Position numbers and translations under genes: made by a program
In this document: in pieces, positions 30,581 to 45,708 of the stretch
Layout of the letters: each line of letters opens with the position of its first letter
Numbering within the stretch: position 1 is the stretch's first letter
The notes under the pieces: model-generated
Database searches by the model: none
Told to the model about the DNA's origin: nothing
Seen by the model: the letters and a program-made list of their open reading frames with translations, nothing else
IMG/VR virus record: IMGVR_UViG_3300042539_001687
Span: 1-61,602 of that record
Strand: one strand, 5' to 3'
DNA: 61,602 bases
Source: a virus
Taxonomy: Duplodnaviria > Caudoviricetes

Positions 30581-31962
30581 ACTGCGGTCTCCTGATAAAG
30601 GGGAACTGTCTTGCACCAAGACGGGACCTGGTTGGCCCAGCCTGGATCCGTCAACGCAACGACCGTCCGGGCTCGCAGCTGGCGTTGCGGCCAGCCTGTG
30701 TACCCATCTGTGATGAGCACGATCGAGTCCGGATGGTCCTCCTTGTCCACCTGGATCAGGGCTGCGGCCATGTCCGTGCCGCCCCCGCCCGTCCATGTGA
30801 ACTTGTCGATGTTGGAGAGCTGCAGGGAGGAACGCACGTGCGTGTCCGCGCAGACAACCTTCACCGACTTCAGCTTCCGAAGACCGTCGGCGATCACGGT
30901 GAGCGCCTTGATCTTCGTCTCGCGGTCGCTCATGGACCCGGAGGTATCCACGATCACGACCGCACTGGCCTGCGTAGTCAGCTGACCACGCAGGCGACAC
31001 ACATCCTGCGGCTGCTTGCGAGACAGCCTGCGGTACGTCGCCAGCCGCCCGCCCAGTGGGTTGGCTGTGCTGGTAGCGACGACCGACTTGAGGTGCTGGA
31101 ACGGATCCGGCTGCGGTCGCAGCTGAATGTCCAGCGCCTGCTTGAGGATTCCTGGAACGGAGCCGGGCATCTTGTTCTCGTGCTCGCGGCAAGCGTTGTC
31201 CAGCTTGTGGGCGTACAGGTTCTCCTTGTACGCGCCCCAAGAATCATCCTCCTCTTCGTGCTGCCGGCGCACGCCGTCGGCTGCGGAGCCGCCAGTGCCC
31301 GGCACGCACGCCCGAGCGGCCAGTCCGTTCTTGCCTTCGCGCGAGCCCGGCTTGCCGGACTTCTGCTGGGGCTTGGACGCCTCCGCCCGGCTGTCGCCCG
31401 AACCGCCAGTCTCGCCGGCCTGCTCGGGCTCACCGTCCGGCTGTCCTTCGCCGCTGCCGCCACCGCCCTTGGGTCGGTTGCGCACAGCAGCAAGGATCAT
31501 GGAGTAGTACTCCAGCAACTCCTTGTTCTCCGGGAAGTCCAGCTTGATGCCGAGCTGCGGACACTCGGCACCAAGATGAACAGCCCCAGCCGGCCGCAGC
31601 GGGCGCATGAAAGCCAGGATCTGCTCGATGCAGAGATCGCCGGCGATGTTCATGACGAGCTGCAGGTTGGGCTCGGGGTGGTCCCCGTAAGCTTCCTGCG
31701 CACGGGCGTGGTGCCTGAGGATCAGGTGCAACGCTTCGTGCAGGATCACGTAGGCCAGCGTGTCCACGTCAAGGGCCTCGACGAACTCGGGGTCCCAGTG
31801 GATCACGCCGTCCATGCTCACGCCGCAGGTTCCCGAGCCAGGGCTCGGTTGCTCGCTGAGTGAGTAGATGTAGGTGGCCAGGTAGGGTGCGTACCCGAAG
31901 GTACGCACCCGCCCGGCCGCCAACGCCGCACGAGCTTGTGCGGCACGGACTTTGGATAACAT
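30577..31962 (-). CDS. DUF2201-like metallopeptidase + VWA domain protein
   Basis: HEALHLILRH..NIAGDLCI; acidic/Gly linker; VDTSGSMS MIDAS, GGGGTDM, ITDGY; AAAGGAG RBS before ATG 31962. Confidence 0.88.
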   Translation of the reverse strand: MLSKVRAAQARAALAAGRVRTFGYAPYLATYIYSLSEQPSPGSGTCGVSMDGVIHWDPEFVEALDVDTLAYVILHEALHLILRHHARAQEAYGDHPEPNLQLVMNIAGDLCIEQILAFMRPLRPAGAVHLGAECPQLGIKLDFPENKELLEYYSMILAAVRNRPKGGGGSGEGQPDGEPEQAGETGGSGDSRAEASKPQQKSGKPGSREGKNGLAARACVPGTGGSAADGVRRQHEEEDDSWGAYKENLYAHKLDNACREHENKMPGSVPGILKQALDIQLRPQPDPFQHLKSVVATSTANPLGGRLATYRRLSRKQPQDVCRLRGQLTTQASAVVIVDTSGSMSDRETKIKALTVIADGLRKLKSVKVVCADTHVRSSLQLSNIDKFTWTGGGGTDMAAALIQVDKEDHPDSIVLITDGYTGWPQRQLRARTVVALTDPGWANQVPSWCKTVPLYQETAV

Positions 31963-31972
31963 GGTCTCCTTT

Positions 31973-32332
31973 CTAGTCGTCGCCAAACGCGGCGACCTGA
32001 TTGGCGTTCTGATCTACGGCCTCCGCCCACGAGACGGCAGCCGCCACGAACATGGCCATCGAGTGATTGGCCAGAACCTCGATCTTCTCGTGCGCCTCGA
32101 GAGGGGACTCCTTCTTGGCCGCACGTACCGCTTTGCCGCACTCGATGGCGAGCTTGGCAATGACGGAGAACAACAGCCCGAACCGCATTGCGGAGTCGCC
32201 AGGGATCTGGCCCTCGCTCATCGCGTGAGCGGTGGCGCGGATGATCCGCATGCACGACTCCTTGCTGTCCGGCACCAGCCCGTTGTCCTCATCCGGATCG
32301 AACTCGTAAAAGTCCAGGTCTTTGACCTTCAT
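31973..32332 (-). CDS. Hypothetical protein
   Basis: GAGGAG RBS; lies between the AAA and VWA genes. Confidence 0.7.
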   Translation of the reverse strand: MKVKDLDFYEFDPDEDNGLVPDSKESCMRIIRATAHAMSEGQIPGDSAMRFGLLFSVIAKLAIECGKAVRAAKKESPLEAHEKIEVLANHSMAMFVAAAVSWAEAVDQNANQVAAFGDD

Positions 32333-32341
32333 GCTTTCTCC

Positions 32342-33460
32342 TCAGTCCTTGAGACCGCTCGGCACAAGCTTCATCAGCTTCTGCATGAGGGCCTGAGGGG
32401 GGGTCCAGCCATCGGGACGCACGCCGCCCTTCGCGACGGGCGCCCAAAGGCTCTTGAACTGGGTCAGGAACGTCTCGATCTCGTGCTCGCCGATCTCGAC
32501 GAACACCTTCGCAGCCCTGGCCCACCGCTCGGCGCTGGTCTGGGAGCGCAGCTCCTTGACCAGCCCAGTCAGCAGGCAGATCTGCAGGTCGGGGCGGCCG
32601 GCCTCGTACTTGTAGGCCTCCGTCCCTTCCAGGATTGCAGCCGGATCAATCAGATCCAGCTGGCTCATGTACCGCAGGAACTCAGCGCCGGCTGCGTCGC
32701 CGACGCACCCGACCACGAGGTCCGTGACCACCGAGCTGCCGAGCCGGTGGCCGACAGCCTCCGCCGCCGACAGGCACTTGACCACGTAGGACCAAGTGCG
32801 CGGGTTCGGAAACGAGAGGGTCTCGTCCGACTGCGGCAGCTTCTCCAGGCAGTCCGGCGCCGAGCGCAGGAACGCCTCCACGAGCGAGCCGTACTTGGGG
32901 TACAGCTCCCTGTGGCTCTCGGGCACGACCGGAAACGGAGGCGCGCTCCAGTTCAGGCCGTTGCGGTAACCCTTGTAGAGCTCCGCCTGGTCGATCTGCC
33001 ACTTGCAGTGGAAGAACCGCGACCGCATCGAGGGCGGGAGCGTGTTGCCTCCGGGAGCCAGCTCCGGCGGATTGGCCGCCGCCACGATGATGGTCGACTC
33101 CGGGAGAGTGACATCACCCACGCGTCGTTCCGTGATGAGCGACAGCTCCGCAGCCATCGTCGTCGGAGGCACGCACGTGAACTCGTCCAGCAGGAGGAAC
33201 CCGGCACCATCCTTGAACTTGTCCACCCATTGGGTGGGCAGCATCCGGATGACACCGAGCTGCCGGTCAGCATCGGGGTAGCCGGAGAAGTCCTCCGGCA
33301 GGTGGGTCGAACCGATCAGCAAGTGAAAGGTCCGGTCGAGTGCGCGGGCCAGCTGCCCGAGCACCGTCGTCTTGCCTACCCCAGTGCCGCCCCACACGAT
33401 GGTGGGCACGACCTGCAGGGCGATGAAACACGCTTCGTTCTTAGTCTGCTGAGTAGCCAT
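32342..33460 (-). CDS. MoxR-like AAA+ ATPase
   Basis: WGGTGVGKTT Walker A, PEDFSGYP, LLLDEF Walker B, AANPP, SRF, FPNPRTW. Confidence 0.92.
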   Translation of the reverse strand: MATQQTKNEACFIALQVVPTIVWGGTGVGKTTVLGQLARALDRTFHLLIGSTHLPEDFSGYPDADRQLGVIRMLPTQWVDKFKDGAGFLLLDEFTCVPPTTMAAELSLITERRVGDVTLPESTIIVAAANPPELAPGGNTLPPSMRSRFFHCKWQIDQAELYKGYRNGLNWSAPPFPVVPESHRELYPKYGSLVEAFLRSAPDCLEKLPQSDETLSFPNPRTWSYVVKCLSAAEAVGHRLGSSVVTDLVVGCVGDAAGAEFLRYMSQLDLIDPAAILEGTEAYKYEAGRPDLQICLLTGLVKELRSQTSAERWARAAKVFVEIGEHEIETFLTQFKSLWAPVAKGGVRPDGWTPPQALMQKLMKLVPSGLKD

Positions 33461-33513
33461 AAGGCCTCCTCAAGGAAAGAGACAGACGGAGCCACGCTGG
33501 CCCCGTCTAAAGA

Positions 33514-33539
33514 GAACTCGCCGACCCCTGAAATCAGGG
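33514..33539 (-). promoter_or_regulatory. Conserved ~27-bp intergenic motif, copy 1
   Basis: + strand GAACTCGCCGACCCCTGAAATCAGGG; six similar copies between 33.5 and 39.9 kb. Confidence 0.8.
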
Positions 33540-33755
33540 CAGGCTTGGATCGACCCGGACAATCACGTCCGGCGGCACCAGGCAGGACAGGCGACGCCCG
33601 TCATCCCAGTCCACTGACACCTGCAGCTGCGCGGGCCTTCCGAAAAAGCGCAGCTCTTCTACGTGCGTCACTGTGCCCTCAGTGCCCGGCTTCACTGGAT
33701 CTGGGTCATCGCCCATGTGGACGAGCATGACCCTGTCGCCCTTCCGGAATCTCAT
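33534..33755 (-). CDS. DUF4314-like protein
   Basis: GDRVMLVHMGDDPDPVKPGTEGTV..VDWDDGRRL. Confidence 0.8.
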   Translation of the reverse strand: MRFRKGDRVMLVHMGDDPDPVKPGTEGTVTHVEELRFFGRPAQLQVSVDWDDGRRLSCLVPPDVIVRVDPSLP

Positions 33756-34588
33756 ACAGAGACCTCGAGCAGGGAGCTGACAGCCAGGCCGTTCTCCGCA
33801 GCTTCGAGCGGCTCGCGCATCCAGTCGAGCTGCTGCCCGAGCGCCTCCTCGTAGCTGCGGATCTTGGACACAATCGCCTGGCACTTCTTTCGCAGAAGCT
33901 TGACCCGCTTCTCGTCGTCGATGCCAGTGGTGATCTCGTCGAGGATGCCCTGCGACTGAGAGGTCACCTCCTCGTGGAGCTGGTTGACGATGTGCTCCAC
34001 TGTCTTGGGATCAGACGCCACCTCGAACGGCACCATGTGGTACCGCCAGAGCTGGGCGTCGTCCCGCCACTGCGCGAACCGAGACACTGCGTCCGCCGGC
34101 AAGTAGTAGAGATTGCTACCGCCAAGCGCTACGCCATTGAGCCGCCGGACTACGCCCGCCACTGCGGTGCGCAGCTGGCCGGGCGACATCAGGTCGCGCC
34201 GCTGGTCGTACGCCTGCTGCAGGTGCGTGCCGATCACGCCCGCCGGCAGCTGGCCGTTGAGCTCCAGCAGCTGCACCTTGTGGCTTGCGTCCACCGCAGC
34301 GGACACCACGTGGATCGCATCGTTGCGGGTCGCACCCTTGCGGATGCGCACTGCCTCGAACGCCAGGTCGGCCGTGAGATTCCGAATCAGCAGCGGAAGC
34401 TCGGGCTCGACGGTGGTCATGCGAGCCACCTCCTTGATCGCCTCCTGAATGGCAGTCGACTGGCTCGGCGGTCGGTTGACCACGTTCTTCCAGCCCTGCT
34501 TCTCGCAGGCATCCTTCACGACCGACCGGGCGTGGGCCCGATTCGTACCGAACACGACGGCGGACTGGCCCGCCACTTGAATGCTCAT
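33752..34588 (-). CDS. Hypothetical helical protein (278 aa)
   Basis: AAAGGAG RBS before ATG 34588; GGSNLYYLP segment; located upstream of the AAA/VWA pair. Confidence 0.75.
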   Translation of the reverse strand: MSIQVAGQSAVVFGTNRAHARSVVKDACEKQGWKNVVNRPPSQSTAIQEAIKEVARMTTVEPELPLLIRNLTADLAFEAVRIRKGATRNDAIHVVSAAVDASHKVQLLELNGQLPAGVIGTHLQQAYDQRRDLMSPGQLRTAVAGVVRRLNGVALGGSNLYYLPADAVSRFAQWRDDAQLWRYHMVPFEVASDPKTVEHIVNQLHEEVTSQSQGILDEITTGIDDEKRVKLLRKKCQAIVSKIRSYEEALGQQLDWMREPLEAAENGLAVSSLLEVSV

Positions 34589-34607
34589 GGCATTCTCCTT
34601 TGGGGTG

Positions 34608-34656
34608 AAAAGAAACCGCCGGGCCAGCAGCCCGCAGGCAACTGCCAGCCCGGCGG
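34608..34656 (-). terminator. Strong intrinsic terminator-like hairpin
   Basis: - strand CCGCCGGGCTGGCAG...CTGCTGGCCCGGCGG (15 bp, 2 G-U) followed by TTTCTTTT. Confidence 0.7.
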
Positions 34657-34689
34657 CGGGAGGTGTACGAGTGTACACATTTCGGAGCG

Positions 34690-34902
34690 TCAGGTGTCGA
34701 CCATCAGCTCCCACTGATCCGCGATGGTCATCGAGTACGCCTGGTTGGCGCACGCAGTGATCGCATCGGCCTCGCTCGGGTAGGGGCCGCGCGGCTTGGG
34801 GTCGCGCGGGTCTTCGAGGAGGAAGTAGAAACAGCCATTGGCCCCGAACACCGACCCGACTGGTCGGCGGTCGAGGCGCACCGGTACCACATCACGTGCC
34901 AT
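34690..34902 (-). CDS. Hypothetical protein
   Basis: GGGAGG RBS; GPYPSEADA motif. Confidence 0.65.
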   Translation of the reverse strand: MARDVVPVRLDRRPVGSVFGANGCFYFLLEDPRDPKPRGPYPSEADAITACANQAYSMTIADQWELMVDT

Positions 34903-34951
34903 GGGAACCTCCCTGAACAGGGGTGAAGAGAAGGCAGGCCGGGCGGCCTGC

Positions 34952-35164
34952 TCAGTGGGGAGTCAGGGACTGCTCCAGCTTTCTGAGCTGGGTCGCAAGC
35001 GCCTGCACCACCGCCACGTCGTCTTCAGTGACGCCGTAGCCTGTGTCTGCCATCTCCATTGCTGCAGCTTCGTCAAGCCAGTCGTCCAGCACGTCGTGCA
35101 GGACCTGGATTTGCTTGGGCTTCAGCGGAAGGTGGACTGTCGGAACTTTGCGTGGCTGTGTCAC
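34952..35164 (-). CDS. Hypothetical protein
   Basis: AGGAG RBS; GTGA overlap. Confidence 0.6.
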   Translation of the reverse strand: MTQPRKVPTVHLPLKPKQIQVLHDVLDDWLDEAAAMEMADTGYGVTEDDVAVVQALATQLRKLEQSLTPH

Positions 35165-35316
35165 GACCTGCTCCTATACACCAGGGATCGCACCGCCATC
35201 AGGACAGCGCACCAAGCGATGGCCTGCAGCGGGTACGCATTGACAAACGACACGAGCGAATCGAGCTGGCCGGCAGTGGCCTGCACGGCGCGCTCAAAGT
35301 CGATGGCGTGCTTCAT
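35161..35316 (-). CDS. 51-aa membrane peptide (absent from the ORF track)
   Basis: Manual translation MKHAIDFERAVQATAGQLDSLVSFVNAYPLQAIAWCAVLMAVRSLVYRSRS; 4-nt overlaps with both neighbours. Confidence 0.6.
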   Translation of the reverse strand: MKHAIDFERAVQATAGQLDSLVSFVNAYPLQAIAWCAVLMAVRSLVYRSRS

Positions 35317-35528
35317 GAGTCGAGCCTCCGGAAGATCTCGACGGCCATGTCACCGCCGTCGCGCGGGGTCATCTCCCGCAAGGCTTCCGACAGCTCCGGG
35401 ACTGTGACAGCCAGCTGCGGGGGCAGCTCCTGCGACAGGGCAGTGGCCGCCCGAGCGAGAGACACGAACCGGAACTGGGGGGCAGCCTTCTTGTGGCTGC
35501 GGGTGGGAACACTCTTCTTCATCGACAT
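35313..35528 (-). CDS. Hypothetical protein
   Basis: GGGAGGTG RBS before ATG 35528. Confidence 0.65.
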   Translation of the reverse strand: MSMKKSVPTRSHKKAAPQFRFVSLARAATALSQELPPQLAVTVPELSEALREMTPRDGGDMAVEIFRRLDS

Positions 35529-35588
35529 GGGACACCTCCCGGGAAACAAGAAAGGCCGGCGCCAACGTGGCAACCGGCCGTCTACAAA

Positions 35589-35614
35589 GAACTCGCCAAC
35601 CCCTGAAATCAGGG
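35589..35614 (-). promoter_or_regulatory. Conserved ~27-bp intergenic motif, copy 2
   Basis: + strand GAACTCGCCAACCCCTGAAATCAGGG. Confidence 0.8.
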
Positions 35615-35615
35615 A

Positions 35616-35960
35616 CTATTCAGGGCAGCTGTCGAGCAGCGGCCCCAGATCCACATCGTCCGCCATTGCCTGGACTGCCAGGCGCAGGGCCTCGAGCTCG
35701 CGCACGGACTTGTCGAGCTGCAGCTTCATGATGGCCCGAAGCGAAGCCGACCTGGCCCTGACGTACGCCACCTGCGCTGGGTTGCGATTCTTCTTCTCCG
35801 CTGCCATCCGCAGCTCCTTGCGGAGACAGGTGCTGGACTTGGTGGCCGTGTCGTGGACCACGTTGCTCAGGTAGGCGGTGGCGCTCTGTGCCTTGCACTG
35901 CAGCTCCCACGCCCTGCGCTCCAGCGCCTCACACTTCTCGATATCTGATTGCGTAATCAC
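35616..35960 (-). CDS. Coiled-coil hypothetical protein
   Basis: AAAGGAG RBS, GTG start. Confidence 0.7.
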   Translation of the reverse strand: MITQSDIEKCEALERRAWELQCKAQSATAYLSNVVHDTATKSSTCLRKELRMAAEKKNRNPAQVAYVRARSASLRAIMKLQLDKSVRELEALRLAVQAMADDVDLGPLLDSCPE

Positions 35961-35971
35961 AGAATCTCCTT

Positions 35972-36286
35972 TCAGTCAGGACAAACCTCGAGCAGGGGAG
36001 CCGCCTCGAGCGAGGCGAGAAGCTCCTCTATCGACATCGAAAACTCACGCCACTCGGGACGGAACTGCTTGACTCCAAGCTCTAGCTTCGCGGCAGCGAG
36101 CTCCGACTCCGCCCTGCGAGTGCGCAGGCACTCCGACGCAGGGCCGAGCTTTCGGACTGCGTCTTCCGACTCTGACACCGTCGCGGCCAGCAGAGACAGG
36201 TTGCTCAGCAACCTGCCCATGCGCTCCGTCAAGCGCCCCAGCTGGTTGGCGCTTGCGGCCAGGCCCATCAGACTCATCGACTCCAT
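35972..36286 (-). CDS. Coiled-coil hypothetical protein
   Basis: 104-aa ORF overlapping the upstream gene end. Confidence 0.6.
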   Translation of the reverse strand: MESMSLMGLAASANQLGRLTERMGRLLSNLSLLAATVSESEDAVRKLGPASECLRTRRAESELAAAKLELGVKQFRPEWREFSMSIEELLASLEAAPLLEVCPD

Positions 36287-36594
36287 ACCCCGTACCCCTC
36301 CTTCCGGAGGGCAGCAGCCAGCGCAGCCTCAGCTGCCTCTGCCTCCTGCCGTGTCTGGTACGTGACGCTGGGCATGAGGTCCGTCCTCAACCCTGTCCCG
36401 TACTTGGTGACCCAGCCGCGATTGGCATGGACGCCGCTCTTGTGCTGGGCCAGCCGATGCTCTGCGGTGTGGGCTGTGCTGCCCACATACAGGCACCCCT
36501 TGCCACCGCCGGCATTGGCCCGGCGGAAGCGACCGCTCTGCTGCACATCGTCGGACAGGCCCACCACGTACAGCCGGAAGAGTGGCTTACTCAT
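36274..36594 (-). CDS. GIY-YIG-like nuclease domain protein
   Basis: LYVV..CLYVGST..RLAQHK..EAEAAE; GAGGAGG RBS. Confidence 0.75.
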   Translation of the reverse strand: MSKPLFRLYVVGLSDDVQQSGRFRRANAGGGKGCLYVGSTAHTAEHRLAQHKSGVHANRGWVTKYGTGLRTDLMPSVTYQTRQEAEAAEAALAAALRKEGYGVWSR

Positions 36595-36955
36595 CGTCGC
36601 CCTCCTCGTGGCAGCCACATTCAGGGTCGTCGCAGTCCTGGTCCCACAGCGCCGCCATCTCACGGGGCATGGCACGCGGGCCGTGATCCGTGATCACCAT
36701 GCGCATCGTCTTGGCAGTCAGCGCCGAGTGCACGGTCGACTGCCCGGTGAGGGTGTCGACCTCCTCGAGCGTGAGGAACTCGTGCTCCCCCAGCGGACGG
36801 TACATATTCAGGTGGCGGTGCGCCGCCTGCATGTCACGAAACATCGCGTCGATCTCAGGGGTTACCTTGTCGATCGCGCCATCCTGGTTGCGGTACAGGA
36901 CCACGAACGGGGGGACGGGAAGCTCCTTCAGTTCTCGATTCTGGCAATCGTCCAT
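36587..36955 (-). CDS. Hypothetical protein
   Basis: GGAGGTG RBS; C-terminal CDDPECGCH. Confidence 0.65.
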   Translation of the reverse strand: MDDCQNRELKELPVPPFVVLYRNQDGAIDKVTPEIDAMFRDMQAAHRHLNMYRPLGEHEFLTLEEVDTLTGQSTVHSALTAKTMRMVITDHGPRAMPREMAALWDQDCDDPECGCHEEGDDE

Positions 36956-37027
36956 CACGCACCTCCGACAGGCCGGTGGAAAAACACGAGGAGCCAGCAG
37001 CCCGGCCGACTGCTGGCCCCTCACAAA

Positions 37028-37054
37028 GAACTCGCCGGCCCCTGAAAACAAGGG
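37028..37054 (-). promoter_or_regulatory. Conserved ~27-bp intergenic motif, copy 3
   Basis: + strand GAACTCGCCGGCCCCTGAAAACAAGGG, abutting the stop at 37055. Confidence 0.8.
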
Positions 37055-37312
37055 TCATTCCAGGTCCCAAGCCTCAGCCTTTTCTAGGTGCTGTTGGGTG
37101 GGCACCGTGAGGCGCTCGCGGGCAGTCGCCAGCAGCAGCGCCGTCCGCAGCTTGCTGTGCAGTCCCGCAAGGGTTTCCATGTGGTCGTCGGTGAATCCAC
37201 CGCCGCCATCCTGGCTGTCGATGAGCGCGGCCAGCGCCTCGCCGAACAGCTCCAGCTCATCCGTGAGGAAAGCGACTGTCGCCCCTCGTGCATGCAGGGC
37301 GACGCGCTTCAC
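37055..37312 (-). CDS. Hypothetical protein
   Basis: AAAGGAGG RBS; GTGA overlap. Confidence 0.65.
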   Translation of the reverse strand: MKRVALHARGATVAFLTDELELFGEALAALIDSQDGGGGFTDDHMETLAGLHSKLRTALLLATARERLTVPTQQHLEKAEAWDLE

Positions 37313-37734
37313 TTGTCCCCTCCTTTCAGTCCCGACATCATGGATTGGATGGCCAGCCGAAAGCCGATGAGCACATGCTTGTACTCATGTTGCTCGCGCT
37401 CCCGGAACTCGCCCACGTCTTTGGCCTCTGTCCTGGCCATGAGGAGTTGCTCCTCCAGCTCGGACACCCTGCTCCGCAGATGCGACTCTTCCCCGAAGCG
37501 CCGGTAGGCGGCGGAGCTGTAGTCCGGCGGCTGGAACTCGGCGGACCACCCATCCGCCGGCGTCGTGCCATCGTGCCGCTCGTCCATCGCGATGTACCAG
37601 CTGTCGATGCCGGCCACTCCGGGATTGTCCTTGCAGTTGGGTAGCTGCGACATCAGCTGCCTCTGTGCCTGCTCCATGCCATCGGCGTTCACGGTGAACG
37701 CCACTAGAATCACGTGCGCTGGACTCTCCATCAC
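37309..37734 (-). CDS. Hypothetical protein
   Basis: GAGGAAGG upstream; 141 aa. Confidence 0.65.
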   Translation of the reverse strand: MMESPAHVILVAFTVNADGMEQAQRQLMSQLPNCKDNPGVAGIDSWYIAMDERHDGTTPADGWSAEFQPPDYSSAAYRRFGEESHLRSRVSELEEQLLMARTEAKDVGEFREREQHEYKHVLIGFRLAIQSMMSGLKGGDK

Positions 37735-37754
37735 CGAACCTCCTCATAGAAGAA

Positions 37755-37833
37755 CCTGCGGTCTACGCAGGCCTGCAACGGCGCAGGGGGAGCGGCAGTT
37801 AGTTACCTCCTGCCGCTGGACCTTGAGCCGTCA
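37755..37833 (-). ncRNA. Unrecognised structured RNA motif, copy B (loop GAGGUAACUAA)
   Basis: - strand AGCGGCAG-GAGGTAACTAA-CTGCCGCT plus GCCGTTGC; covaries with copy A. Confidence 0.6.
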
Positions 37834-38313
37834 CTCACGAACCAGCCCGGCGAGCGCATCGTCCCGCCCCAGATCCCGGATCCGAGAGACCAGCGCCTGG
37901 TAGCGGTGGTTCGTCTCCCGAATCACAGACTCCTGGCTGGCGAGCAGCTGCCCCTGGTGGGAGAGCTGCTGTTCCTGCGTGTCCCGCACCCGCTCGCTGT
38001 GGGCCAGCGCATCGGCCAGCTTGGCGACATGGGCGTCCGCCTCACCGACCTCCTGGATGCTGAGGTTCAGCGCTTCCCGCAGCTGACCCTGCACGTCCCG
38101 AGCTGCATCGAGCCGCCCCTCCAGCATGGCGATCTCGTTGGCCAGCTTGGCCTTGCTGGCGCCCGTCGCATCGGCCCATGCCTCCTCGACCTGGACGCAC
38201 AGCGGCGCCGTGTAGTGCCAGGTTCGCAGCGCCTTGATCGCGTCGCCCCAGTAGGCAACGACCACGCCGCCCAGAACAAACGCCCCGACAATCAACAGAT
38301 CACGCACCTTCAT
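37831..38313 (-). CDS. N-terminal TM + coiled-coil protein
   Basis: GGGAGGTG RBS; LLIVGAFVLGGVVVAYW followed by heptad-rich helix. Confidence 0.75.
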   Translation of the reverse strand: MKVRDLLIVGAFVLGGVVVAYWGDAIKALRTWHYTAPLCVQVEEAWADATGASKAKLANEIAMLEGRLDAARDVQGQLREALNLSIQEVGEADAHVAKLADALAHSERVRDTQEQQLSHQGQLLASQESVIRETNHRYQALVSRIRDLGRDDALAGLVRE

Positions 38314-38368
38314 CGCACACCTCCCACAGGAAAGAACGGGGAGCGGCAGAGTGCCGTCCCTCTAAAAA

Positions 38369-38396
38369 GAACTCGCCGACCCCTGAAAACAAGGGG
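38369..38396 (-). promoter_or_regulatory. Conserved ~27-bp intergenic motif, copy 4
   Basis: + strand GAACTCGCCGACCCCTGAAAACAAGGGG. Confidence 0.8.
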
Positions 38397-38405
38397 TTTT
38401 TGACG

Positions 38406-38465
38406 TCCAGGCAACGGCCCGGATTGAGTGGCGGTTAGTCACCTCCCGCCACCGGATCCGCGTCG
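38406..38465 (-). ncRNA. Unrecognised structured RNA motif, copy A (loop GAGGUGACUAA)
   Basis: - strand GGTGGCGG-GAGGTGACTAA-CCGCCACT plus GCCGTTGC; begins right after the stop at 38466. Confidence 0.6.
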
Positions 38466-38852
38466 TCAGGCCTCGATCCGATCCCAGCCTGCAGGCCCGT
38501 CGACCGGACTGAACCGCTCCCGCTCCGGGCGGTGCGCGAAGCCGATCAGCAGCTCGCTGCCCGCCTCGCCAGGGAACGCCTCCAGCAGTCGCTCATCCCT
38601 GTCGGCGTAGCTGCCGGTGCAGGTGAGCTTCTCGTAGAGCATCTTCGCCCCACCGGCGGCGTCGTCGTGCCTGAAGTCCACGAGCCGCCATTCGGGAAGG
38701 AACTCCGACAGGTAGTCGTCGAAGGTCTCGCCGATCGCCAGCTCCACCTGCATCTCCTCCGGTTTGACCGCGAACATCGTCGTGGTCCCAAGCGGGTTGC
38801 GGCGGCAGATCACCACAAACCCCAGCTGTGCCAACTTGTCGAAGTACCCCAT
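38466..38852 (-). CDS. Hypothetical protein
   Basis: GGAGGTG RBS before ATG 38852; immediately downstream of hammerhead 2. Confidence 0.7.
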   Translation of the reverse strand: MGYFDKLAQLGFVVICRRNPLGTTTMFAVKPEEMQVELAIGETFDDYLSEFLPEWRLVDFRHDDAAGGAKMLYEKLTCTGSYADRDERLLEAFPGEAGSELLIGFAHRPERERFSPVDGPAGWDRIEA

Positions 38853-38880
38853 CACACACCTCCATTCCTCGAGAGAAACT

Positions 38881-38932
38881 GCCCTCATCAGTCACCGCCA
38901 TACGGTGAGACCCGCCGAAGCGGGTTTCGGGC
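38881..38932 (-). ncRNA. Type II hammerhead ribozyme (downstream copy, HH2)
   Basis: - strand GCCC-GAAA-CCCGC-TTCG-GCGGG-TC^-TCACCG-TATGG-CGGTGA-CTGATGA-GGGC: intact CUGAUGA/GAAA/GUC core and three perfect stems; predicted cut between 38909 and 38908. Confidence 0.93.
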
Positions 38933-39112
38933 TTAAGCATTGGCCCAATACCACTCCGCCTCCGACTCCGCCTCTTCGCGTGTAGCGTGGGAGGATGCGG
39001 TGTCGTAGCCGGGCGGGAGCTCGAATTCCTTGAGCGCGTTGAAGCCCTCAGGAAACGGACCGACCACCACTGCGGGATAGTCGGGGCCGTAGATCACCAG
39101 GTAGCGATCCAT
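38933..39112 (-). CDS. 59-aa acidic protein bracketed by two hammerheads
   Basis: GGAGGTGA RBS before ATG 39112 (alternative GTG 39124); TAA directly abuts HH2. Confidence 0.75.
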   Translation of the reverse strand: MDRYLVIYGPDYPAVVVGPFPEGFNALKEFELPPGYDTASSHATREEAESEAEWYWANA

Positions 39113-39138
39113 ATTCACCTCCACGACTCAGGGAAACT

Positions 39139-39190
39139 GCCCTCATCAGCTGCCGCCATACGGCAGGACCGGCCGAAGCCGGTTTCGGGC
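39139..39190 (-). ncRNA. Type II hammerhead ribozyme (upstream copy, HH1)
   Basis: - strand GCCC-GAAA-CCGGC-TTCG-GCCGG-TC^-CTGCCG-TATGG-CGGCAG-CTGATGA-GGGC; compensatory changes versus HH2 in stems I and III; predicted cut between 39167 and 39166. Confidence 0.93.
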
Positions 39191-39459
39191 TAAGCGACCT
39201 TCGCGATCCGGACTTGGGCCTTGTCAGCGTCCCGCTTCTTGGAGCGGGCAGCGGCGTCCTCAAGGGACCGGACTCGCGTCTTGAGGGCGTCGATCTCGGC
39301 GTGGGCGTGAACCGCCATCCCGAGCGCCTGAGACGCATCGTCTGCGACCCACGAGATCGCATTGCTCATCACCCGCCAGGCGACGGCGACAGCGACCACA
39401 ACGCCGATCACCACCAGACCCTGAGCCGCATCAGCGCCGTGTTGCAGAACCCATTCCAT
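39190..39459 (-). CDS. Single-TM + coiled-coil protein
   Basis: GGGAGGTG RBS; GLVVIGVVVAVAVAW; the stop overlaps HH1. Confidence 0.7.
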   Translation of the reverse strand: MEWVLQHGADAAQGLVVIGVVVAVAVAWRVMSNAISWVADDASQALGMAVHAHAEIDALKTRVRSLEDAAARSKKRDADKAQVRIAKVA

Positions 39460-39521
39460 GACACACCTCCCAGAGAAAGAAACCACCGAACCAGGAACCA
39501 GGACCTCCCTGGCTCCAGAAA

Positions 39522-39548
39522 GAACTCGCCAGCCCCTGAAAACAGGGG
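39522..39548 (-). promoter_or_regulatory. Conserved ~27-bp intergenic motif, copy 5
   Basis: + strand GAACTCGCCAGCCCCTGAAAACAGGGG. Confidence 0.8.
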
Positions 39549-39552
39549 ACTT

Positions 39553-39846
39553 TCACTGCGGCTCAAGCACAGGGAACCAGCGCCGTCCGCCGCACTTGGA
39601 GCGCGTAGACTTCCAGATCACGGACAGCCCAGACGGGACAATGGCTTCGTGCATCTTGCGAAGCCGAGCGCCGTCCCACCTCCGCATGGTCTTCCAGGCG
39701 ATGTAAAAGCACGGCCCGAGAGCGCCGTCCTTGCGCAGCGCCGGCCCAACCATCGGGATCATCTTCTCCCAGTCGTCGACCGTCATGCGGAACGCATACG
39801 ATCCACCGTCCGGCTCGTAGCACTCAACTAGAAGCGTCTTGGCCAT
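39553..39846 (-). CDS. Hypothetical protein, first gene of the leftward operon
   Basis: GGAGGA RBS; 97 aa. Confidence 0.7.
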   Translation of the reverse strand: MAKTLLVECYEPDGGSYAFRMTVDDWEKMIPMVGPALRKDGALGPCFYIAWKTMRRWDGARLRKMHEAIVPSGLSVIWKSTRSKCGGRRWFPVLEPQ

Positions 39847-39905
39847 GGCGAGTCCTCCATGCCAGTCAGGCCACAGTCACTTGCTGTGGTTGCTGCTGAC
39901 ACTAA

Positions 39906-39933
39906 GAGCTCGCCGACCCCTGAAAACAAAGGG
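39906..39933 (-). promoter_or_regulatory. Conserved ~27-bp intergenic motif, copy 6
   Basis: + strand GAGCTCGCCGACCCCTGAAAACAAAGGG, upstream of the first leftward gene. Confidence 0.78.
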
Positions 39934-40156
39934 CCGGACGGCGGTGAAGCACGAGTGAAATGAGGAGGGGTCGACCCGGTTGTTTGGAGTTTCGGACAGG
40001 CCCTACCCGTTCGTGTTCCCGTGCGGGCGATGCAAGTCCTGCGGCAGCGCGGACTTACGACGCCAAGTTCAAAGGCCCCGAGCCCCCCAGTCGCGATCCG
40101 ATCATATATACGTACCCCCCCTGGATTTTTTCCCGATTTTGAGCGTCCCGGCCCAC

Positions 40157-40185
40157 TTGCGCGCCAGGCGCGATGGGTGTACAAC
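40157..40185 (+). promoter_or_regulatory. Sigma70-type promoter candidate for ssb
   Basis: TTGCGC-N17-TACAAC, followed by a GC hairpin and an AAAGGA RBS. Confidence 0.45.
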
Positions 40186-40240
40186 GGTGCGCATGCCCCG
40201 CCGGTTGGGCGGGGCTGTCTCCCAAGCAGAAAGGACTCGC

Positions 40241-40594
40241 ATGATCACTGCCACAGTGACCGGCAATGTGGGCAAAACACCCGAGCTCAGGACCACCTCT
40301 GGCGGCAAGCCGATGACCACCTTTGGGGTGGCGTCGACCTACAAGCGCAAGGGCGGTGAGCCCACGACGACGTGGGTGGATGTGGTGTGCTTCGACGAGT
40401 CGGCTGAGGCTGTCTGCGAAAGCCTGAACAAGGGCGATCGCGTGATGGTGACCGGCCGCGTCGAGCTGGAGAGGTACCAGAAGAAGGACGGCGGGGAGGG
40501 GCAGTCGCTGCGGATGATCGCCGATGACGTGGCCCTCAGTGTCCGCTTCCGCAAGCAGGAATCGGCACCCGCAGGAGGGTCGGAGCCATGGTAG
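40241..40594 (+). CDS. ssb: Single-stranded DNA-binding protein
   Basis: VTGNVGKTPELRTT..TTWVDVVCF..LNKGDRVMVTGR..YQKKDG; acidic EPW tail. Confidence 0.93.
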   Translation: MITATVTGNVGKTPELRTTSGGKPMTTFGVASTYKRKGGEPTTTWVDVVCFDESAEAVCESLNKGDRVMVTGRVELERYQKKDGGEGQSLRMIADDVALSVRFRKQESAPAGGSEPW

Positions 40595-40698
40595 GGGTGC
40601 CGGGCGGCGCGGACGAAATCACATGGCCAGTCGTCGCGATGATGGCGGTGCTGCTCGCAGGGCAGGCGCTCGTCGTCTGGATCGCCAGCAGACGCTAG
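40588..40698 (+). CDS. 36-aa membrane peptide
   Basis: Manual translation contains WPVVAMMAVLLAGQALVVWIA; overlaps the ssb stop. Confidence 0.35.
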   Translation: MVGVPGGADEITWPVVAMMAVLLAGQALVVWIASRR

Positions 40699-40921
40699 AG
40701 GCGGAAAGTAACGCCCCAACCGTAAGAAAAAAGCACCACTTTTCGTATCGTATTGGATATGATTTGGGCGACCGAAACTGCGTAATTGCCCACCGTCAGC
40801 CGACGCCGCGCCCTACGGCGTCTATGGGTGCTGTCGGCGGGCTGCCCCCAGGCGTAGCGCAGGTGGACAACACCCTGGCGACGATGGGACGGGGGCAGTG
40901 GCACATTCTGGAAACTGTAAA

Positions 40922-41161
40922 ATGAGCGACATCCTTGCCGACTACCGCGAGTGGCGTGACGCCCAGCCGGTGCGCGTCAGCACCCACAGCGACCGCTGCC
41001 ATATGTACCATGATCGGTGCATGATTCACCGGCTCGCGGATGCGCTGGAAAGGGCCACGCTCACCGACGAGGAGCGGGAGGCGATTGCCTACTACGTCGG
41101 CACGGGCGGCCCCGACGCGGTTGACGCCACGCTGCGGACGCTACTGGAGAGGACGACATGA
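40922..41161 (+). CDS. Hypothetical protein with TLTDEEREAI motif
   Basis: ATG 40922; motif shared with the next gene. Confidence 0.6.
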   Translation: MSDILADYREWRDAQPVRVSTHSDRCHMYHDRCMIHRLADALERATLTDEEREAIAYYVGTGGPDAVDATLRTLLERTT

Positions 41162-41712
41162 GGCACAACGAGCCGATAGCGTGGGCGGTCCTGCTCGCGG
41201 ACGGCGACCGCATCTACGATGTCTACGCCATCGAAGAGGAAGCCAAGGCGATTGACGAGGTTGTGACGGGCAATCACGGCATCATCCCGCTCTACCGTTC
41301 GCCCACGCTCGCCGACGCGGAGCGGGAGGCGATCTCCAGGGTGTACGATTTGCTGTGCGACCGCGCCCGCGAGCTGCAAAGCGCCACGCGGCTTGACGAG
41401 GCTCGCCCGCTGATTCAGTGGGCGAAGACACTGCAAGGTCTGTGGGAGCGGCTTTCGCCCGACCGGCCAGAGGCTATCGCAGGGGGCGATACTGCCACAC
41501 CACCCGAGCCTGCGATCCCGCCCGCGTGGCTGTCACGCCCGTACTGGGTCGATCCGGCAGGCGGCCACAGGTACGGGTTCCCGCGCCTCTACGATCCGGC
41601 GACGGACGGCGATATGACCGCGTGGCTGATCGCGAGCGGCTACCCGGAGTCGCTGGCGATGCAGGAGCTGGCGTGTACGTTCACGGCCTGCACACAAACT
41701 GTCGAAAAGTGA
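41158..41712 (+). CDS. Mosaic hypothetical protein (EPIAW..IIPLYRSP + TLADAEREAI + DPAGGHRYGFP segments)
   Basis: GAGGA RBS; ATGA overlap. Confidence 0.65.
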   Translation: MRHNEPIAWAVLLADGDRIYDVYAIEEEAKAIDEVVTGNHGIIPLYRSPTLADAEREAISRVYDLLCDRARELQSATRLDEARPLIQWAKTLQGLWERLSPDRPEAIAGGDTATPPEPAIPPAWLSRPYWVDPAGGHRYGFPRLYDPATDGDMTAWLIASGYPESLAMQELACTFTACTQTVEK

Positions 41713-41761
41713 CAGTTTCTGTGTCGCCAAAAACCCGCTCTCGCAACACATCACATCTGAT

Positions 41762-41971
41762 ATGTCTCCCGTAGCGACACTCCGATACCGACTCCCCGAC
41801 GAGCAGGGCGAGTTCGACGCCGCCCGGCTGGGCAGCCAGGCGTTGCTCGTTCTGTGGGAGATCGACCAGAAGTGCCGCAGCTTGCTGAAGCACGGCGACC
41901 CGACGCCAGAGCAGGCACGGCTGGCGCAGGATATCAGGGCGATGATTGACGGGGAGCTACTCGACACATGA
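41762..41971 (+). CDS. Hypothetical protein
   Basis: ATLRYRLPDEQGEF..LWEIDQKCRSLLKHG, a small-phage-protein-like pattern. Confidence 0.65.
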   Translation: MSPVATLRYRLPDEQGEFDAARLGSQALLVLWEIDQKCRSLLKHGDPTPEQARLAQDIRAMIDGELLDT

Positions 41972-42056
41972 GCGTCCGCGCATTTCTGATGTCTATGGCG
42001 ATATCGACGGCCCTGCTGGCGGCGATGCTGGTATCGGCCCTGATTTTCCTTAGGGG

Positions 42057-42320
42057 GTGAATGTGGCGGAGTTCTCCTGGCTCACGGCGGCGACGATTTT
42101 CGGCACCTACGTGCTGATTGACATGCTGTACGCCTGGTACGTGATGTGCGTAGGGGACCGACGCGCCTTCACGGCTGCATGCCTCACGGCCGTGATCTAC
42201 AGCCTGCTCGCGTACGGCGTTGTCAGCTACAGCCAGAACATCCTGTACCTGGTCCCTCTGGCCTCAGGTGCGTTTCTCGGCACTTACCTTACAGTGCGCC
42301 TTCACCCGGAGAAGCGCTAG
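42057..42320 (+). CDS. Small three-TM membrane protein
   Basis: Three hydrophobic segments ending GAFLGTYLTV. Confidence 0.7.
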   Translation: MNVAEFSWLTAATIFGTYVLIDMLYAWYVMCVGDRRAFTAACLTAVIYSLLAYGVVSYSQNILYLVPLASGAFLGTYLTVRLHPEKR

Positions 42321-42524
42321 GTGACCGAGAAGGAAGACCCGCTGGCCCGCATCCACCGGGAATACCGCCAGCAATGCAAGGAGTGGGGTACGTACCGGCC
42401 GCTAACTGAAAGCCAGATGGCCGGGTTCGCCGTGCGCTGGCGCCAGGAGTCCCAGCGCAAGCTCGAGGCCAGCCAGGCCAAGCCTCAGCGCCGCCGGCCC
42501 AATCGCACTGCACGGGAGACATAA
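42321..42524 (+). CDS. Hypothetical protein
   Basis: 67-aa ORF abutting the upstream stop. Confidence 0.5.
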   Translation: MTEKEDPLARIHREYRQQCKEWGTYRPLTESQMAGFAVRWRQESQRKLEASQAKPQRRRPNRTARET

Positions 42525-42549
42525 ATCCCTTAGAAACCAGGAGGCGGTC

Positions 42550-42897
42550 ATGCCAATGCCGAGCAAAAGCCCAGAGGATGGCATTCGCGAGCTGCTGAGG
42601 ATGCGGCGGCCAGTCGGCATCGACGGAGACGATGCCGCCAAGCCCGTGCCCCTTCCTGCGAGGGAATCCGCCGAGCTTGGGCGCGACCCGTTTGCCTCCG
42701 TGCCGCCCAAAGTCAAGCTGCCGCCGATGTACTCCGCCGGGCCGGTGTATGCAGGACTTCGCGATCCGGCGCCGCTGCAAATGCTGGTGCCTGAGGAGTA
42801 TGTCGAGGGCGTGACGTTTGATCCGCCGTCCAACCGGGAGCGCATCGCAGCGGCGCACCAGAAGCGAATCGCCCAGCAACGCGGCATGGGCCGCTAG
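42550..42897 (+). CDS. Hypothetical protein
   Basis: AGGAGG RBS; AGACATAAA motif at 42517. Confidence 0.65.
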   Translation: MPMPSKSPEDGIRELLRMRRPVGIDGDDAAKPVPLPARESAELGRDPFASVPPKVKLPPMYSAGPVYAGLRDPAPLQMLVPEEYVEGVTFDPPSNRERIAAAHQKRIAQQRGMGR

Positions 42898-42912
42898 GTC
42901 CGGGAGGGTCGC

Positions 42913-44580
42913 GTGGGCTTGTTCGACATGATCGGCGTGGACGGCCGTCGGCTTCCGGCCGCTCCGGAGCGCCCAGCCGGCCCCTCGACTGCGCAGCTAG
43001 AGGCCGAGCAGGCGGCCCTCTACGAGATGAACCGCCTCAGGGGTGCCGTGCCGCCGGTCCGCTTGCCAGCCGAAGAGGTGGGTGCGCTCCGGGCGTACAC
43101 GGAATTCCTGCCGGGCATGAGCGTCGATCGGCCCTCCGGGCTGCGGGTGGCGAAGGACGGCCAGACGCTGTACAGGCCGGCCGTGCCGCTCGCTAATCTC
43201 ATCGACACTCCCGAGCAGGCGGTGTACGGCGCAGCGCCAGGCTACGGTCCGGTCGTGGCCGCCGAGCAGCTAGAGACAGTGTTCGACCGCCTGGAGTCGA
43301 ATCCCGGCTGGTTCAATGCCAAGCAGTTCGGGCGGGAGGCCGCCAAGTATGCGCAGGAGCGCGGCGGGACGGAGCCGGCTCGGCGCGAGTCGCAGTTCCT
43401 GATGTCGCCGGAGCGATACGAGTACATGCAGGCGGGGCCCGGCCGGGCCGTCGACCTGCTCGGGCAACTGCGCGACGACCCTCAGACAGCCCTGCACTTC
43501 TGGAACAGGAGCAAGGATGCCAGAACGACCCGGGACGAGTACGGTGATCCGCTGATGCAGGGGGCCGGATCGAACTACGGCAGGTATCAAGGCGCGGGCG
43601 CTGGGGCACTCGAGCTGCTCGGAAGCCCGCTGTCGCCGATCGGGCGGTACTTGGGCACCCAGTCGATCGTGCCGGCGGCTCTTGCCCACGACACTCGCGG
43701 ATACCCGGGCGGTGCGCGAGACACGCTCGGCATCGCCTATGCGGCGGACCTGGCCAAGCAGCGCTACCGCACCGGCGAAAACCCAATCCTTGACGTGCCC
43801 GAGCGATTGCCTGGCGAGAGCGAGGCCGATCGTGCCGACCGCTGGCGCCGCCGCGAGTCGGAGGTCGTGGGTGACATCGTGGCAATGACACCGCCGGATG
43901 CGGCGGAGATGTCCCGGAACACCTTTGGGGCGGGCACGCCAGAGGTTTCCGGCCGCGTCCTGGAAACGCTGATGGGCTTTGCCGACGCCACCGCTCCCGT
44001 CAGCCTCGCCTCCGCAGCGAAGGCGGCTCCGGGAGCCTGGCTGGCCAAAGAAGCCACCCGAGCTGTCTCTCGCTCCACCGGCTTGCCGATGAACGCTGCC
44101 CGGGCGCAGATGGCAAGGGCTGCCCGGGCGCTGCCCGAGACCGGAATGCTTGGCCAGGGCGCTCGGGTAGCCGGCTACAGGGGCGTGCCGGCAGCGGCTT
44201 ACGCTGAGCAGCTGCGGCGCCCGGGCCTGACCAACTTCCTTCCTGGAGCTTCGGGGAGAGTCGCGAGAGAGGACCTGTTGCCTGACATGGGCGTCGAGGC
44301 CGCGATTAGCTCCACTCTGACACAGCCGCAGCGAACGTGGGGGCAGTTCCTGACCGACCCGGCCATGGACATGCCGGAGAGCGAGTACCAGCAGCTCCTG
44401 GCCGACAGGCGAGCCGCCGCAGAAGACGCTGCGAAGCGCACTGAACTGGCCACCTGGCAGAACCCCAACGAGATCTGGAACGAGTTCAGCAAGGCGCAAG
44501 GCCAGCTCGAGGTTCCTTCGTGGGCGCAAGGCGCGATGCGTGCAGCGCCTGACTCTCTGCGGCGCAAAGTCGCGCGCTAA
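42913..44580 (+). CDS. 555-aa Ala-rich hypothetical protein (possible virion protein)
   Basis: GGGAGG RBS; long ORF preceding the head genes. Confidence 0.65.
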   Translation: MGLFDMIGVDGRRLPAAPERPAGPSTAQLEAEQAALYEMNRLRGAVPPVRLPAEEVGALRAYTEFLPGMSVDRPSGLRVAKDGQTLYRPAVPLANLIDTPEQAVYGAAPGYGPVVAAEQLETVFDRLESNPGWFNAKQFGREAAKYAQERGGTEPARRESQFLMSPERYEYMQAGPGRAVDLLGQLRDDPQTALHFWNRSKDARTTRDEYGDPLMQGAGSNYGRYQGAGAGALELLGSPLSPIGRYLGTQSIVPAALAHDTRGYPGGARDTLGIAYAADLAKQRYRTGENPILDVPERLPGESEADRADRWRRRESEVVGDIVAMTPPDAAEMSRNTFGAGTPEVSGRVLETLMGFADATAPVSLASAAKAAPGAWLAKEATRAVSRSTGLPMNAARAQMARAARALPETGMLGQGARVAGYRGVPAAAYAEQLRRPGLTNFLPGASGRVAREDLLPDMGVEAAISSTLTQPQRTWGQFLTDPAMDMPESEYQQLLADRRAAAEDAAKRTELATWQNPNEIWNEFSKAQGQLEVPSWAQGAMRAAPDSLRRKVAR

Positions 44581-44636
44581 GGTGGCCGGGCGTACACTGG
44601 ACGCCAGCGCCCCATAAACCATTACGGAGTTCCGCC

Positions 44637-45698: not shown

Positions 45699-45708
45699 AA
45701 GGTAAACC

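Follow-up and report, generated by a model that had tools for sequence, protein, structure and literature searches.

The window, i.e. the whole stretch of DNA analysed here, is a complete virus genome of 61,602 bp with direct terminal repeats and a G+C content of ~65%. None of the 50,697 deposited phages in INPHARED matches the region at the DNA level, and none has a match to the portal protein of the window. Its terminase is only 23-24% identical to the terminases of Arthrobacter phages in the same collection. The whole window or part of it is contained in 20 lake/freshwater DNA metagenome runs, and the 22 runs listed include no RNA run with this phage.

A leftward operon of small genes, mostly without a family (codon-position G+C filter), extends from ~39850 to ~29200. 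Several of its junctions that we examined are built in the same way: a structured module is followed by a pyrimidine-rich linker, the word GGAGGUG and a start codon. One junction consists instead of overlapping genes (GTGA at 37312). The intergenic module is one of three, namely a hammerhead, a hairpin element (the subject of this analysis) or a six-copy element with the consensus CCCyUGwUUUCAGGGGyyGGCGAG, which is followed by a terminator-like hairpin. Two genes of the operon, both on the minus strand, adjoin copies of the hairpin element. The 140-aa ORF (38466..38888) has its own stop codon inside the first copy, A, and the 160-aa ORF (37831..38313) is bracketed by copy A and a second copy, B. 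The 160-aa product has a predicted N-terminal hydrophobic stretch and coiled-coil-like sequence, and its single, weak match (E 0.0027) is to a PHROG family of unknown function. When the two proteins were used to search for related loci, the 160-aa protein retrieved nothing and the 140-aa protein retrieved only one close relative (L003), where an 82% identical homologue is followed by the same hairpin element.

Upstream of these genes lie two minus-strand type II hammerheads, one between the 98-aa and 63-aa genes (39131..39190; 30.4 bits) and one between the 63-aa and 140-aa genes (38873..38932; 31.1 bits). Both fall below the gathering score of the Rfam Hammerhead_II model (37). Despite these sub-threshold scores they look like real type II hammerheads from their sequence, in which the GAAA, GUC and CUGAUGA cores are intact. 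According to Perreault et al. (2011, PMC3088659), hammerheads that occur in multiples around a single phage gene presumably serve in the processing of long transcripts. The supplementary hammerhead alignments of that paper might also list the hammerheads of the window. In one strain, position 38922 is joined to 39181, and the 63-aa gene has gone through recombination between the two hammerheads; L003 likewise lacks a 63-aa gene between hammerheads. Because this gene was lost by recombination between hammerheads, cassettes are exchanged at the repeated RNA modules. The locus shows how lake phages assemble an early operon from gene cassettes split by a few exchangeable RNA modules.

Copy A of the hairpin element occupies 38400..38470 on the minus strand and scores 94.7 bits with a covariance model of the element; copy B occupies 37764..37835 on the same strand and scores 84.9 bits. 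Each lies directly 3' of a stop codon: the UGA at 38468-38466 that ends the 140-aa gene for copy A, and the UGA at 37833-37831 that ends the 160-aa gene for copy B. In copy A, the 5' strand of the basal helix P1, UGACG (38468-38464), includes the stop codon itself. Its apical stem P2 is formed by GGUGGCGG (38453-38446) and CCGCCACU (38434-38427), which enclose the 11-nt loop GAGGUGACUAA (38445-38435), and the 3' box GCCGUUGC follows at 38418-38411. In copy B, P1 pairs GUGACGGC (37834-37827, with the stop UGA inside) with GCCGUUGC (37782-37775), and P2 pairs AGCGGCAG (37817-37810) with CUGCCGCU (37798-37791) around the loop GAGGUAACUAA (37809-37799). Both copies have UCC 5' of an 8-bp, G+C-rich P2, and the 3' box begins exactly 16 nt after the loop in each. 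The two loops are identical at 10 of 11 positions. By comparison, three of the eight P2 pairs differ between the copies, two through double compensatory changes and one through a change from G.U to A-U. Within the window, the 13-mer GGAGGTRACTAAC that the two copies share is found at these two places only.

These observations bear out most of an earlier sequence-only reading of the region. That reading had described a two-copy minus-strand motif after the stops at 38466 and 37831, with covarying 8-bp stems and near-identical loops, which brackets a single gene (37831..38313) and shares the intercistronic slot of the hammerheads; every one of these points holds.

The copies stand well clear of the background. 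The best unrelated match of the covariance model in the 75 kb of the window plus L003, searched with filters off, scores 17.4 bits (E 0.25); on the reverse strand, the loci of the copies themselves score no more than 19.6-25.2 bits. Copy A folds with a z-score of -2.28 (2 of 200 shuffles fold as well), and copy B reaches a minimum free energy (MFE) of -42 kcal/mol and a z-score of -3.46 (1 of 200 shuffles as good). Copy B is followed by a small minus-strand hairpin, P4 (37755..37771), which reads CCUGCG-UAGAC-CGCAGG and then UUCUUCU and lies immediately upstream of the Shine-Dalgarno (SD) sequence and start of a 141-aa gene. P4 covaries, becoming CCUGAG/CUCAGG in the orthologue of a distant relative (G002). 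The stretch 3' of copy A (38314..38399, minus strand) shows, in order, a copy of the six-copy element (38385-38372), a GC hairpin, a pyrimidine run, an SD sequence and the ATG of the 160-aa gene.

Rfam 15 yields no gathering-threshold match in the window, and at E<=10 over 30000-46000 it finds only the two hammerheads, located elsewhere than the hairpins. At E<=1 in the relatives L010, L014, L062 and L003, only hammerheads and one unrelated sRNA are found. The expectation that the motif belongs to no known family is thus matched by the Rfam scan, which leaves the hairpins without a match.

Taken together, the aligned copies support a predicted architecture of one long interrupted hairpin of ~21-24 bp, stacked in the order P1-P1a-P1b-P2. 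Its parts measure 6-8 bp (P1), 2 bp (P1a), 3-4 bp (P1b) and 7-11 bp (P2). We tested the nested P1/P1b/P2 pairing on a MAFFT alignment of six copies that carry the 11-nt loop (hereafter loop-type copies). Standard pairs form in 90.2% of the cells, compared to 77.7% in shuffles. Pairs changed on both sides number 9 of 19, compared to 4.4+-1.5 in shuffles (2 of 500 reach this value), and the covariation score is 0.439 versus 0.194 in shuffles (0 of 500 as high) and 0.02-0.10 in slid controls. As no more than five phage records carry the element, the sequences behind this covariation are few and related. In P2, compensatory changes are found at six of the eight pairs. The MFE fold returns the same architecture in eight of the nine copies known in total (8 + 2 + 3 + 8-11 bp), with internal loops of 1x1, 1x1 and 2x2 or 3x3 that show little conservation.

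The basal helix shows two further regularities. First, it contains a tandem U.G/G.U; the U.G is present in all six loop-type copies and the G.U in five, with A-U in the sixth. Second, P1 acts as a clamp on the end of the upstream gene. In six of the nine copies P1 includes the stop codon of the upstream gene (UGA or UAA) in its 5' strand, where an invariant UUG pairs with it; two copies have the stop 3-4 nt 5' of P1, and one copy does not follow a stop. With wobble pairing, this UUG can pair with any stop codon. On the other side, the hairpin usually ends 22-32 nt before the SD sequence of the next gene. Because the tandem G.U pairs of P1 are kept, the reverse strand scores poorly and some copies carry UUCG caps, the element is best read as a sense-strand RNA.

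The sequence-only reading had also noted that CGUU of the 3' box can pair in two ways, either with the 5' GACG or within the loop of a second hairpin, and had suggested a pseudoknot or a switch. Both pairings exist in the sequence. The first is P1 itself and is supported by covariation in the homologues: pair 11-63 of P1 is C-G in five of the nine copies, A-U in two and G.U in two, with the change to A-U in G001 (another distant relative) and to G.U in G002. For the second hairpin, no covariation is seen, and copy A and L003 can form it only in another register. The box position that might pair with the loop covaries with P1 instead; the switch or pseudoknot is therefore not upheld. A specific pseudoknot between GUrAC of the loop and GUUGC of the box was likewise rejected, given that the box position opposite the loop C becomes U exactly where its partner in P1 changes to A or G.

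Relatives were sought with exact-pattern scans, and the candidates were then scored with the covariance model. The search that had been proposed on the basis of the two copies did find homologues: four more loop-type copies in three related contigs, with covariation. In total, the hairpin family comprises nine copies in five phage records (the window, L003, G001, G002 and G003). Six are of the loop type (44.5-94.7 bits), i.e. copies A and B of the window, one in L003, two in G002 (59 and 44.5 bits) and one in G001 (52.9 bits). The L003 copy, found with strict pattern scans, is orthologous to copy A and likewise follows the orthologue of the 140-aa gene. Three further copies have the same basal helices and the same 3' box (CCUGCGCCkUUGCAGG), and their apical stem of 11 bp is capped by UUCG.

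The distant relatives were drawn by scans of IMG/VR for the hammerhead tail and for the six-copy element. They span 27 kb (G001), 9 kb (G002) and 60.8 kb (G003, 99% complete), and their structural proteins are 60-93% identical to those of the window. G003, a complete relative, has only one family member and no loop-type copy, which shows the hairpin element to be dispensable. A relaxed viral scan for loop and box returned 27 stretches, only three already known records being real, and 1 of the 25 loci searched matched the model (G001). The viral scan for the six-copy element returned 60 stretches, and 1 of the 56 that were searched contained a member of the family (G003); a further record (G004) has none by model search. 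Four stretches from a metagenome pattern scan were chance matches, all in non-hairpin sequence and none scored with the model. Among the 185,579 species genomes of GTDB, ten stretches matched the pattern and none matched the model. The three Aquiluna matches read, of five, fall at the beginning of a single conserved coding gene. The bacterial genomes scanned thus gave no host or prophage copy.

The genes that flank the nine copies, upstream and downstream, are unrelated to one another. The module in a given slot also changes. Upstream of the gene MTLVTLSAAQ..., G003 has a hammerhead and G001 a hairpin of the family; before the small gene MLWLLRAAM..., G001 has a loop-type copy where G003 has a UUCG-capped one. 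One G001 copy (4358-4427) follows the six-copy element and precedes a gene, and is not placed after a stop. The hairpin element is modular, and a hammerhead takes its place at one gene. Altogether, the copies are a small, previously undescribed RNA family of uncultivated freshwater phages. No account of such a motif turned up in the main text of the ribozyme and hammerhead literature searched; literature matches to the loop string are only primer-like among the matches listed, and RNA-letter forms give none.

The apical loop is conserved in sequence. Across the six loop-type copies its consensus is G-R-R-G-U-R-A-C-U-A-A, with eight of the 11 positions invariant (G1, G4, U5 and A7-C-U-A-A11). 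The loops of G002 copy 1 and of G001 read GAAGUGACUAA and GGAGUGACUAA. A CsrA-type site, one of the options of the sequence-only reading, is a further candidate role for the loop. CsrA, in hosts that encode it, binds GGA in hairpin loops, usually at several sites that overlap an SD sequence. GGA is present in five of the six loops, and the hairpin sites do not overlap the downstream SD sequence. No conserved 7-mer complementary to the loop was found on the sense strand of the four records. The idea that the UGA/UAA of the loop serve as backup in-frame stops was dropped, as a hand count places them in different frames in the two copies.

Words of the GGAGGU type are complementary to the 3' end of 16S rRNA. 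The closing G plus loop reads GGAGGU(G/A)A in four of the six copies, the real ribosome binding sites (RBSs) of the operon use the same word GGAGGUG, and no ATG, GTG or TTG lies at RBS spacing (ACC, ACU or AGU stand there instead). The loop could then be a mimic of an RBS without a start codon, which would hold a 30S subunit by pairing with the anti-SD. A subunit held in this way could shield the downstream message from 5'-to-3' decay or keep terminating ribosomes for re-initiation. A precedent for such shielding comes from a study in which ribosomes at a strong SD block RNase J1 (PMC5737220). A host ligand is also weakly favoured over a phage protein as reader of the loop, because no phage protein co-occurs with it in the records (partial contigs).

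We nevertheless regard this ribosome-directed reading as unlikely. The SD-like loop described in the sequence-only reading is indeed present in the window with no start codon after it, but it is not the conserved core: two of the six loops lack GGAGG and carry GAAGUGA or GGAGUGA (G002 and G001), so that the part complementary to the ribosome is the variable part. Only part of the invariant GU-ACUAA is complementary to the 3' end of 16S rRNA, and ACUAA has no partner in the anti-SD. Moreover, UUCG replaces the loop in three members, one of them at an orthologous slot, and copy A is separated from the next start codon by ~150 nt, which include an entire six-copy element. The element can also be compared with the STAB-SD of Bacillus mRNAs, reportedly described by Agaisse and Lereclus in 1996 as a ribosome-bound 5' stabiliser. 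In both, the untranslated region that precedes a gene contains an SD-like word but no start codon. In the hairpin, unlike in STAB-SD, this word sits in a loop, GGAGG is not conserved in the family and the loop is dispensable in the UUCG-capped members.

The same loop might instead be read by a protein. An 11-nt loop with eight invariant positions on a stem in which six of eight pairs covary is what an operator for a sequence-specific RNA-binding regulator could look like, be it a translational repressor or an antitermination factor of the nut/boxB kind. The window and G002 each have two such loops per genome. Several copies have a terminator-like hairpin further downstream (copy B and G002 copy 2 are followed by P4 + UUCU), and hairpins also follow the six-copy element below copy A. 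The boxB of the lambda nut sites, a 5-nt loop on a 5-bp stem, offers a parallel, with two near-identical loops per genome on differing stems in early operons. It differs from the present hairpin, which has an 11-nt loop on a helix of more than 20 bp and no boxA-like companion motif seen by reading. Nor did tblastn on the partial contigs, where absence counts for little, reveal a candidate for the arginine-rich, N-like antiterminator that goes with a lambda nut site: of the 20 proteins encoded by the minus-strand operon of the window, not one is matched in each of the three other records with the loop. Downstream hairpins are lacking at G001 copy 1 and at the UUCG copies, and G003 lacks the loop entirely. 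A regulator reading the loop is, on this evidence, also unlikely.

The company of hammerheads raises the question of self-cleavage. Several ribozyme classes were reportedly found by Weinberg and colleagues in 2015 by looking beside hammerhead and twister ribozymes. A new self-cleaving class doing the hammerheads' job would account for the shared post-stop slot, for the exchange with a hammerhead at one orthologous junction and for ~8 conserved nucleotides that are unpaired. The fold points the other way. Where a complex, ribozyme-like fold had been envisaged, the element proves to be a single interrupted hairpin without a junction or a supported pseudoknot (the GUrAC/GUUGC pairing is contradicted by the G/U of the box covarying with P1). 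Its internal loops, 1x1 to 3x3, are hardly conserved, UUCG can replace the whole conserved loop, and no Rfam ribozyme model matches the hairpins at E<=10 in the window or at E<=1 in the relatives. Because the hairpin is simple and its loop dispensable, we consider a self-cleaving class very improbable. Equally improbable is a variant in which the invariant GU-ACUAA loop would dock into the tandem G.U/stop-codon helix of its own hairpin and promote cleavage beside the stop, so that the hairpin would be a minimal catalytic or ribozyme-partner RNA replacing hammerheads.

Position alone would also suit a factor-independent terminator, or a pause hairpin without a U-tract, that marks the ends of cassettes. 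The copies typically sit immediately after stop codons, and copy A is followed by the six-copy element, a possible promoter. Yet no U-run follows P1 (AGG... or CUGG... is found there), and the 12 terminator-like sites flagged in 33300-40300 include neither copy. The concern that the motif might be a simple duplicated terminator is settled by these same two features. In addition, one G001 copy precedes a gene and does not come after a stop, and in most copies the RBS of the next gene comes directly after the hairpin, with no promoter-like element. Termination or pausing of this kind is improbable.

Further still from what we expect is a purely DNA-level repeat that does nothing as RNA, be it a cassette boundary, a recombination site or a neutral leftover of duplication. 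In its favour, recombination between intergenic repeats adds and removes cassettes (the 63-aa gene), and one gene is bracketed by two copies. However, pairing is preserved by compensatory changes while the loop stays fixed, the G.U pairs make the helix strand-specific and the UUCG caps are a feature of RNA. In run X14, the bins of the hammerheads and the six-copy element rise to ~6-18x the flank depth and the main motif bin to ~2x. Such a repeat seems to us the least credible of the explanations.

The account that we favour, tentatively and at rather less than an even chance, is that the copies are cis-acting punctuation hairpins of the leftward polycistronic transcript, which carries the small early or accessory genes. 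The helix would be a nuclease site and/or a barrier, and the loop an optional recognition module. The structure and the modular placement follow from the comparisons above; the nuclease step and the role of the loop are inferred. Specifically, the helix would separate and protect cistrons, like the neighbouring hammerheads, by serving as the substrate of a double-strand-specific endonuclease of the RNase III type and/or as a barrier to exonucleases. The upstream message would then end in a hairpin, and the downstream message would begin with a structured 5' end. Cutting or blocking alike would yield messages of gene length protected by a hairpin, the task proposed for hammerheads around single phage genes (PMC3088659). 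The 11-nt loop, conserved as it is, could be an optional add-on, and the trans factor that reads it might be a host protein or the 30S subunit. We propose punctuation because the helix is strand-specific and about two turns long, clamps the stop codon and is interchangeable in placement with a ribozyme, and because the loop is optional. Judging from MFE folds and covariation, the hairpin provides the interrupted double helix of at least ~20 bp that is a criterion for RNase III. What this account does not explain are the eight invariant loop positions above a covarying stem, which a nuclease or barrier role does not need. Also weighing against it are a strain variant that mismatches P1 of copy B, the terminal P2 pair that is broken in L003 and in one strain, and the dispensability of the element in G003.

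Among known systems, the intercistronic RNase III sites of phage T7 early mRNA (R1.1 type) span about two helical turns with small internal loops. The hairpin shares with them an early polycistronic operon, an intercistronic position, a helix of about two turns with small internal loops and several diverged copies per genome. Unlike the T7 sites, its base includes the upstream stop codon and its 11-nt apical loop is conserved in sequence. By analogy, the hairpin would work most like the RNase III hairpins of T7, with cleavage here being a prediction. The hammerheads that flank single genes in prophages (PMC3088659) make the second comparison. In the operon, the hairpin shares the slot of hammerheads and is interchangeable with one at an orthologous junction, and its purpose would presumably be the same, to divide long phage transcripts into gene-length mRNAs. 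In contrast to them, the hairpin lacks the hammerhead core and a three-way junction and matches nothing in Rfam. If the hairpin is cut at all, it is probably cut by a protein nuclease, unlike the hammerheads.

Structured RNAs beside self-cleaving ribozymes in phage operons are productive ground for new RNA functions. The hairpin is a clean case, since it shows covariation, belongs to no Rfam family and swaps with a hammerhead at one gene. If it is a nuclease site or a stabiliser, protein-dependent and ribozyme-dependent mRNA punctuation would exist side by side. Should the loop bind ribosomes or a regulator, the element would be a compact natural insulator part, and if it were self-cleaving it would represent a new ribozyme class.

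Natural variation adds a last view of the two copies. Strain variants were read from contigs of four lake metagenomes, in which the strains are ~2% diverged. Among the variants listed, copy A has none in any of the four metagenomes and copy B has three. A change of U>C at 37778, seen in two of the three runs that cover it, places an A.C mismatch in the middle of P1 and is evidence against strict constraint. At 37791, U>C in one strain breaks only the terminal pair of P2, which is also unpaired in L003. The third variant, C>U at 37771, retains a G.U pair in the small downstream hairpin P4.

Gene cassettes in the leftward operon (the small minus-strand genes of the window, from about 39850 down to about 29200) recombine at hammerhead copies. 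In the window, a 63-aa gene (38933-39124) lies between the two type II hammerheads (38873-38932 and 39131-39190, minus strand). A contig from the lake metagenome run X19 joins 38922 directly to 39181, skipping 258 nt, and the related phage record L003 has the same arrangement at the hammerhead pair. In both, the 63-aa gene has been lost and a single hybrid hammerhead is left, so the copies serve as recombination points. In L003, positions 2903-2977 (plus strand) gave a sub-threshold Rfam match to DUF3800-VIII RNA (E 0.018; 33.5 bits, where the gathering score is 40.2).

A second module, with the consensus CCCyUGwUUUCAGGGGyyGGCGAG, occurs six times on the minus strand of the window (39922-39909, 39538-39525, 38385-38372, 37044-37031, 35605-35592 and 33530-33517), and is common to the window and the related phage records L003, G001, G002 and G003. 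It consists of a small hairpin and a conserved tail, usually placed directly 3' of a stop codon, and every copy is followed by a GC-rich hairpin and then by a U/C-rich run, a Shine-Dalgarno sequence and a start codon. Several of these GC-rich hairpins were flagged as terminator-like, and 12 terminator-like sites were found in 33300-40300 of the window versus 3.7 expected. Candidate roles for the element are those of a phage promoter, of an attenuator/antitermination target and of some other kind of RNA module.

Read depth in the lake run X14 reached 135-197 in the hammerhead bins (within 38854-38967) and 69 in the bin of one copy of the six-copy element (38341-38397), whereas flanking depth was about 11, so these modules are present in multiple copies spread over many genomes of that lake metagenome. 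In the same run, the main bin of the two-copy hairpin motif (38398-38454) reached only 24. In three of four runs, depth was also raised over a 35-nt stretch (37974-38008) inside the 160-aa gene (37831-38313), and loose ends flanked it on either side; short contigs from other contexts share this stretch.

Between the leftward operon and the genes that run rightward lies a divergent control region (window about 40100-40240; related records L010, about 2270-2330, and L062, about 2480-2520), likely an early promoter or operator region. Its GGGAAAAAATCCAGGGG... block is conserved in the window, G002 and G003, and is followed in the window and G002 by an A+T-rich TACGTATATAT block; the matching stretch of G003 differs (TGCATTTACATGA). 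At the operon's far end sits a serine-recombinase-like gene (28172-29101, minus strand; PHROG integrase / DNA invertase, E 9e-40), and thus the phage may be temperate.
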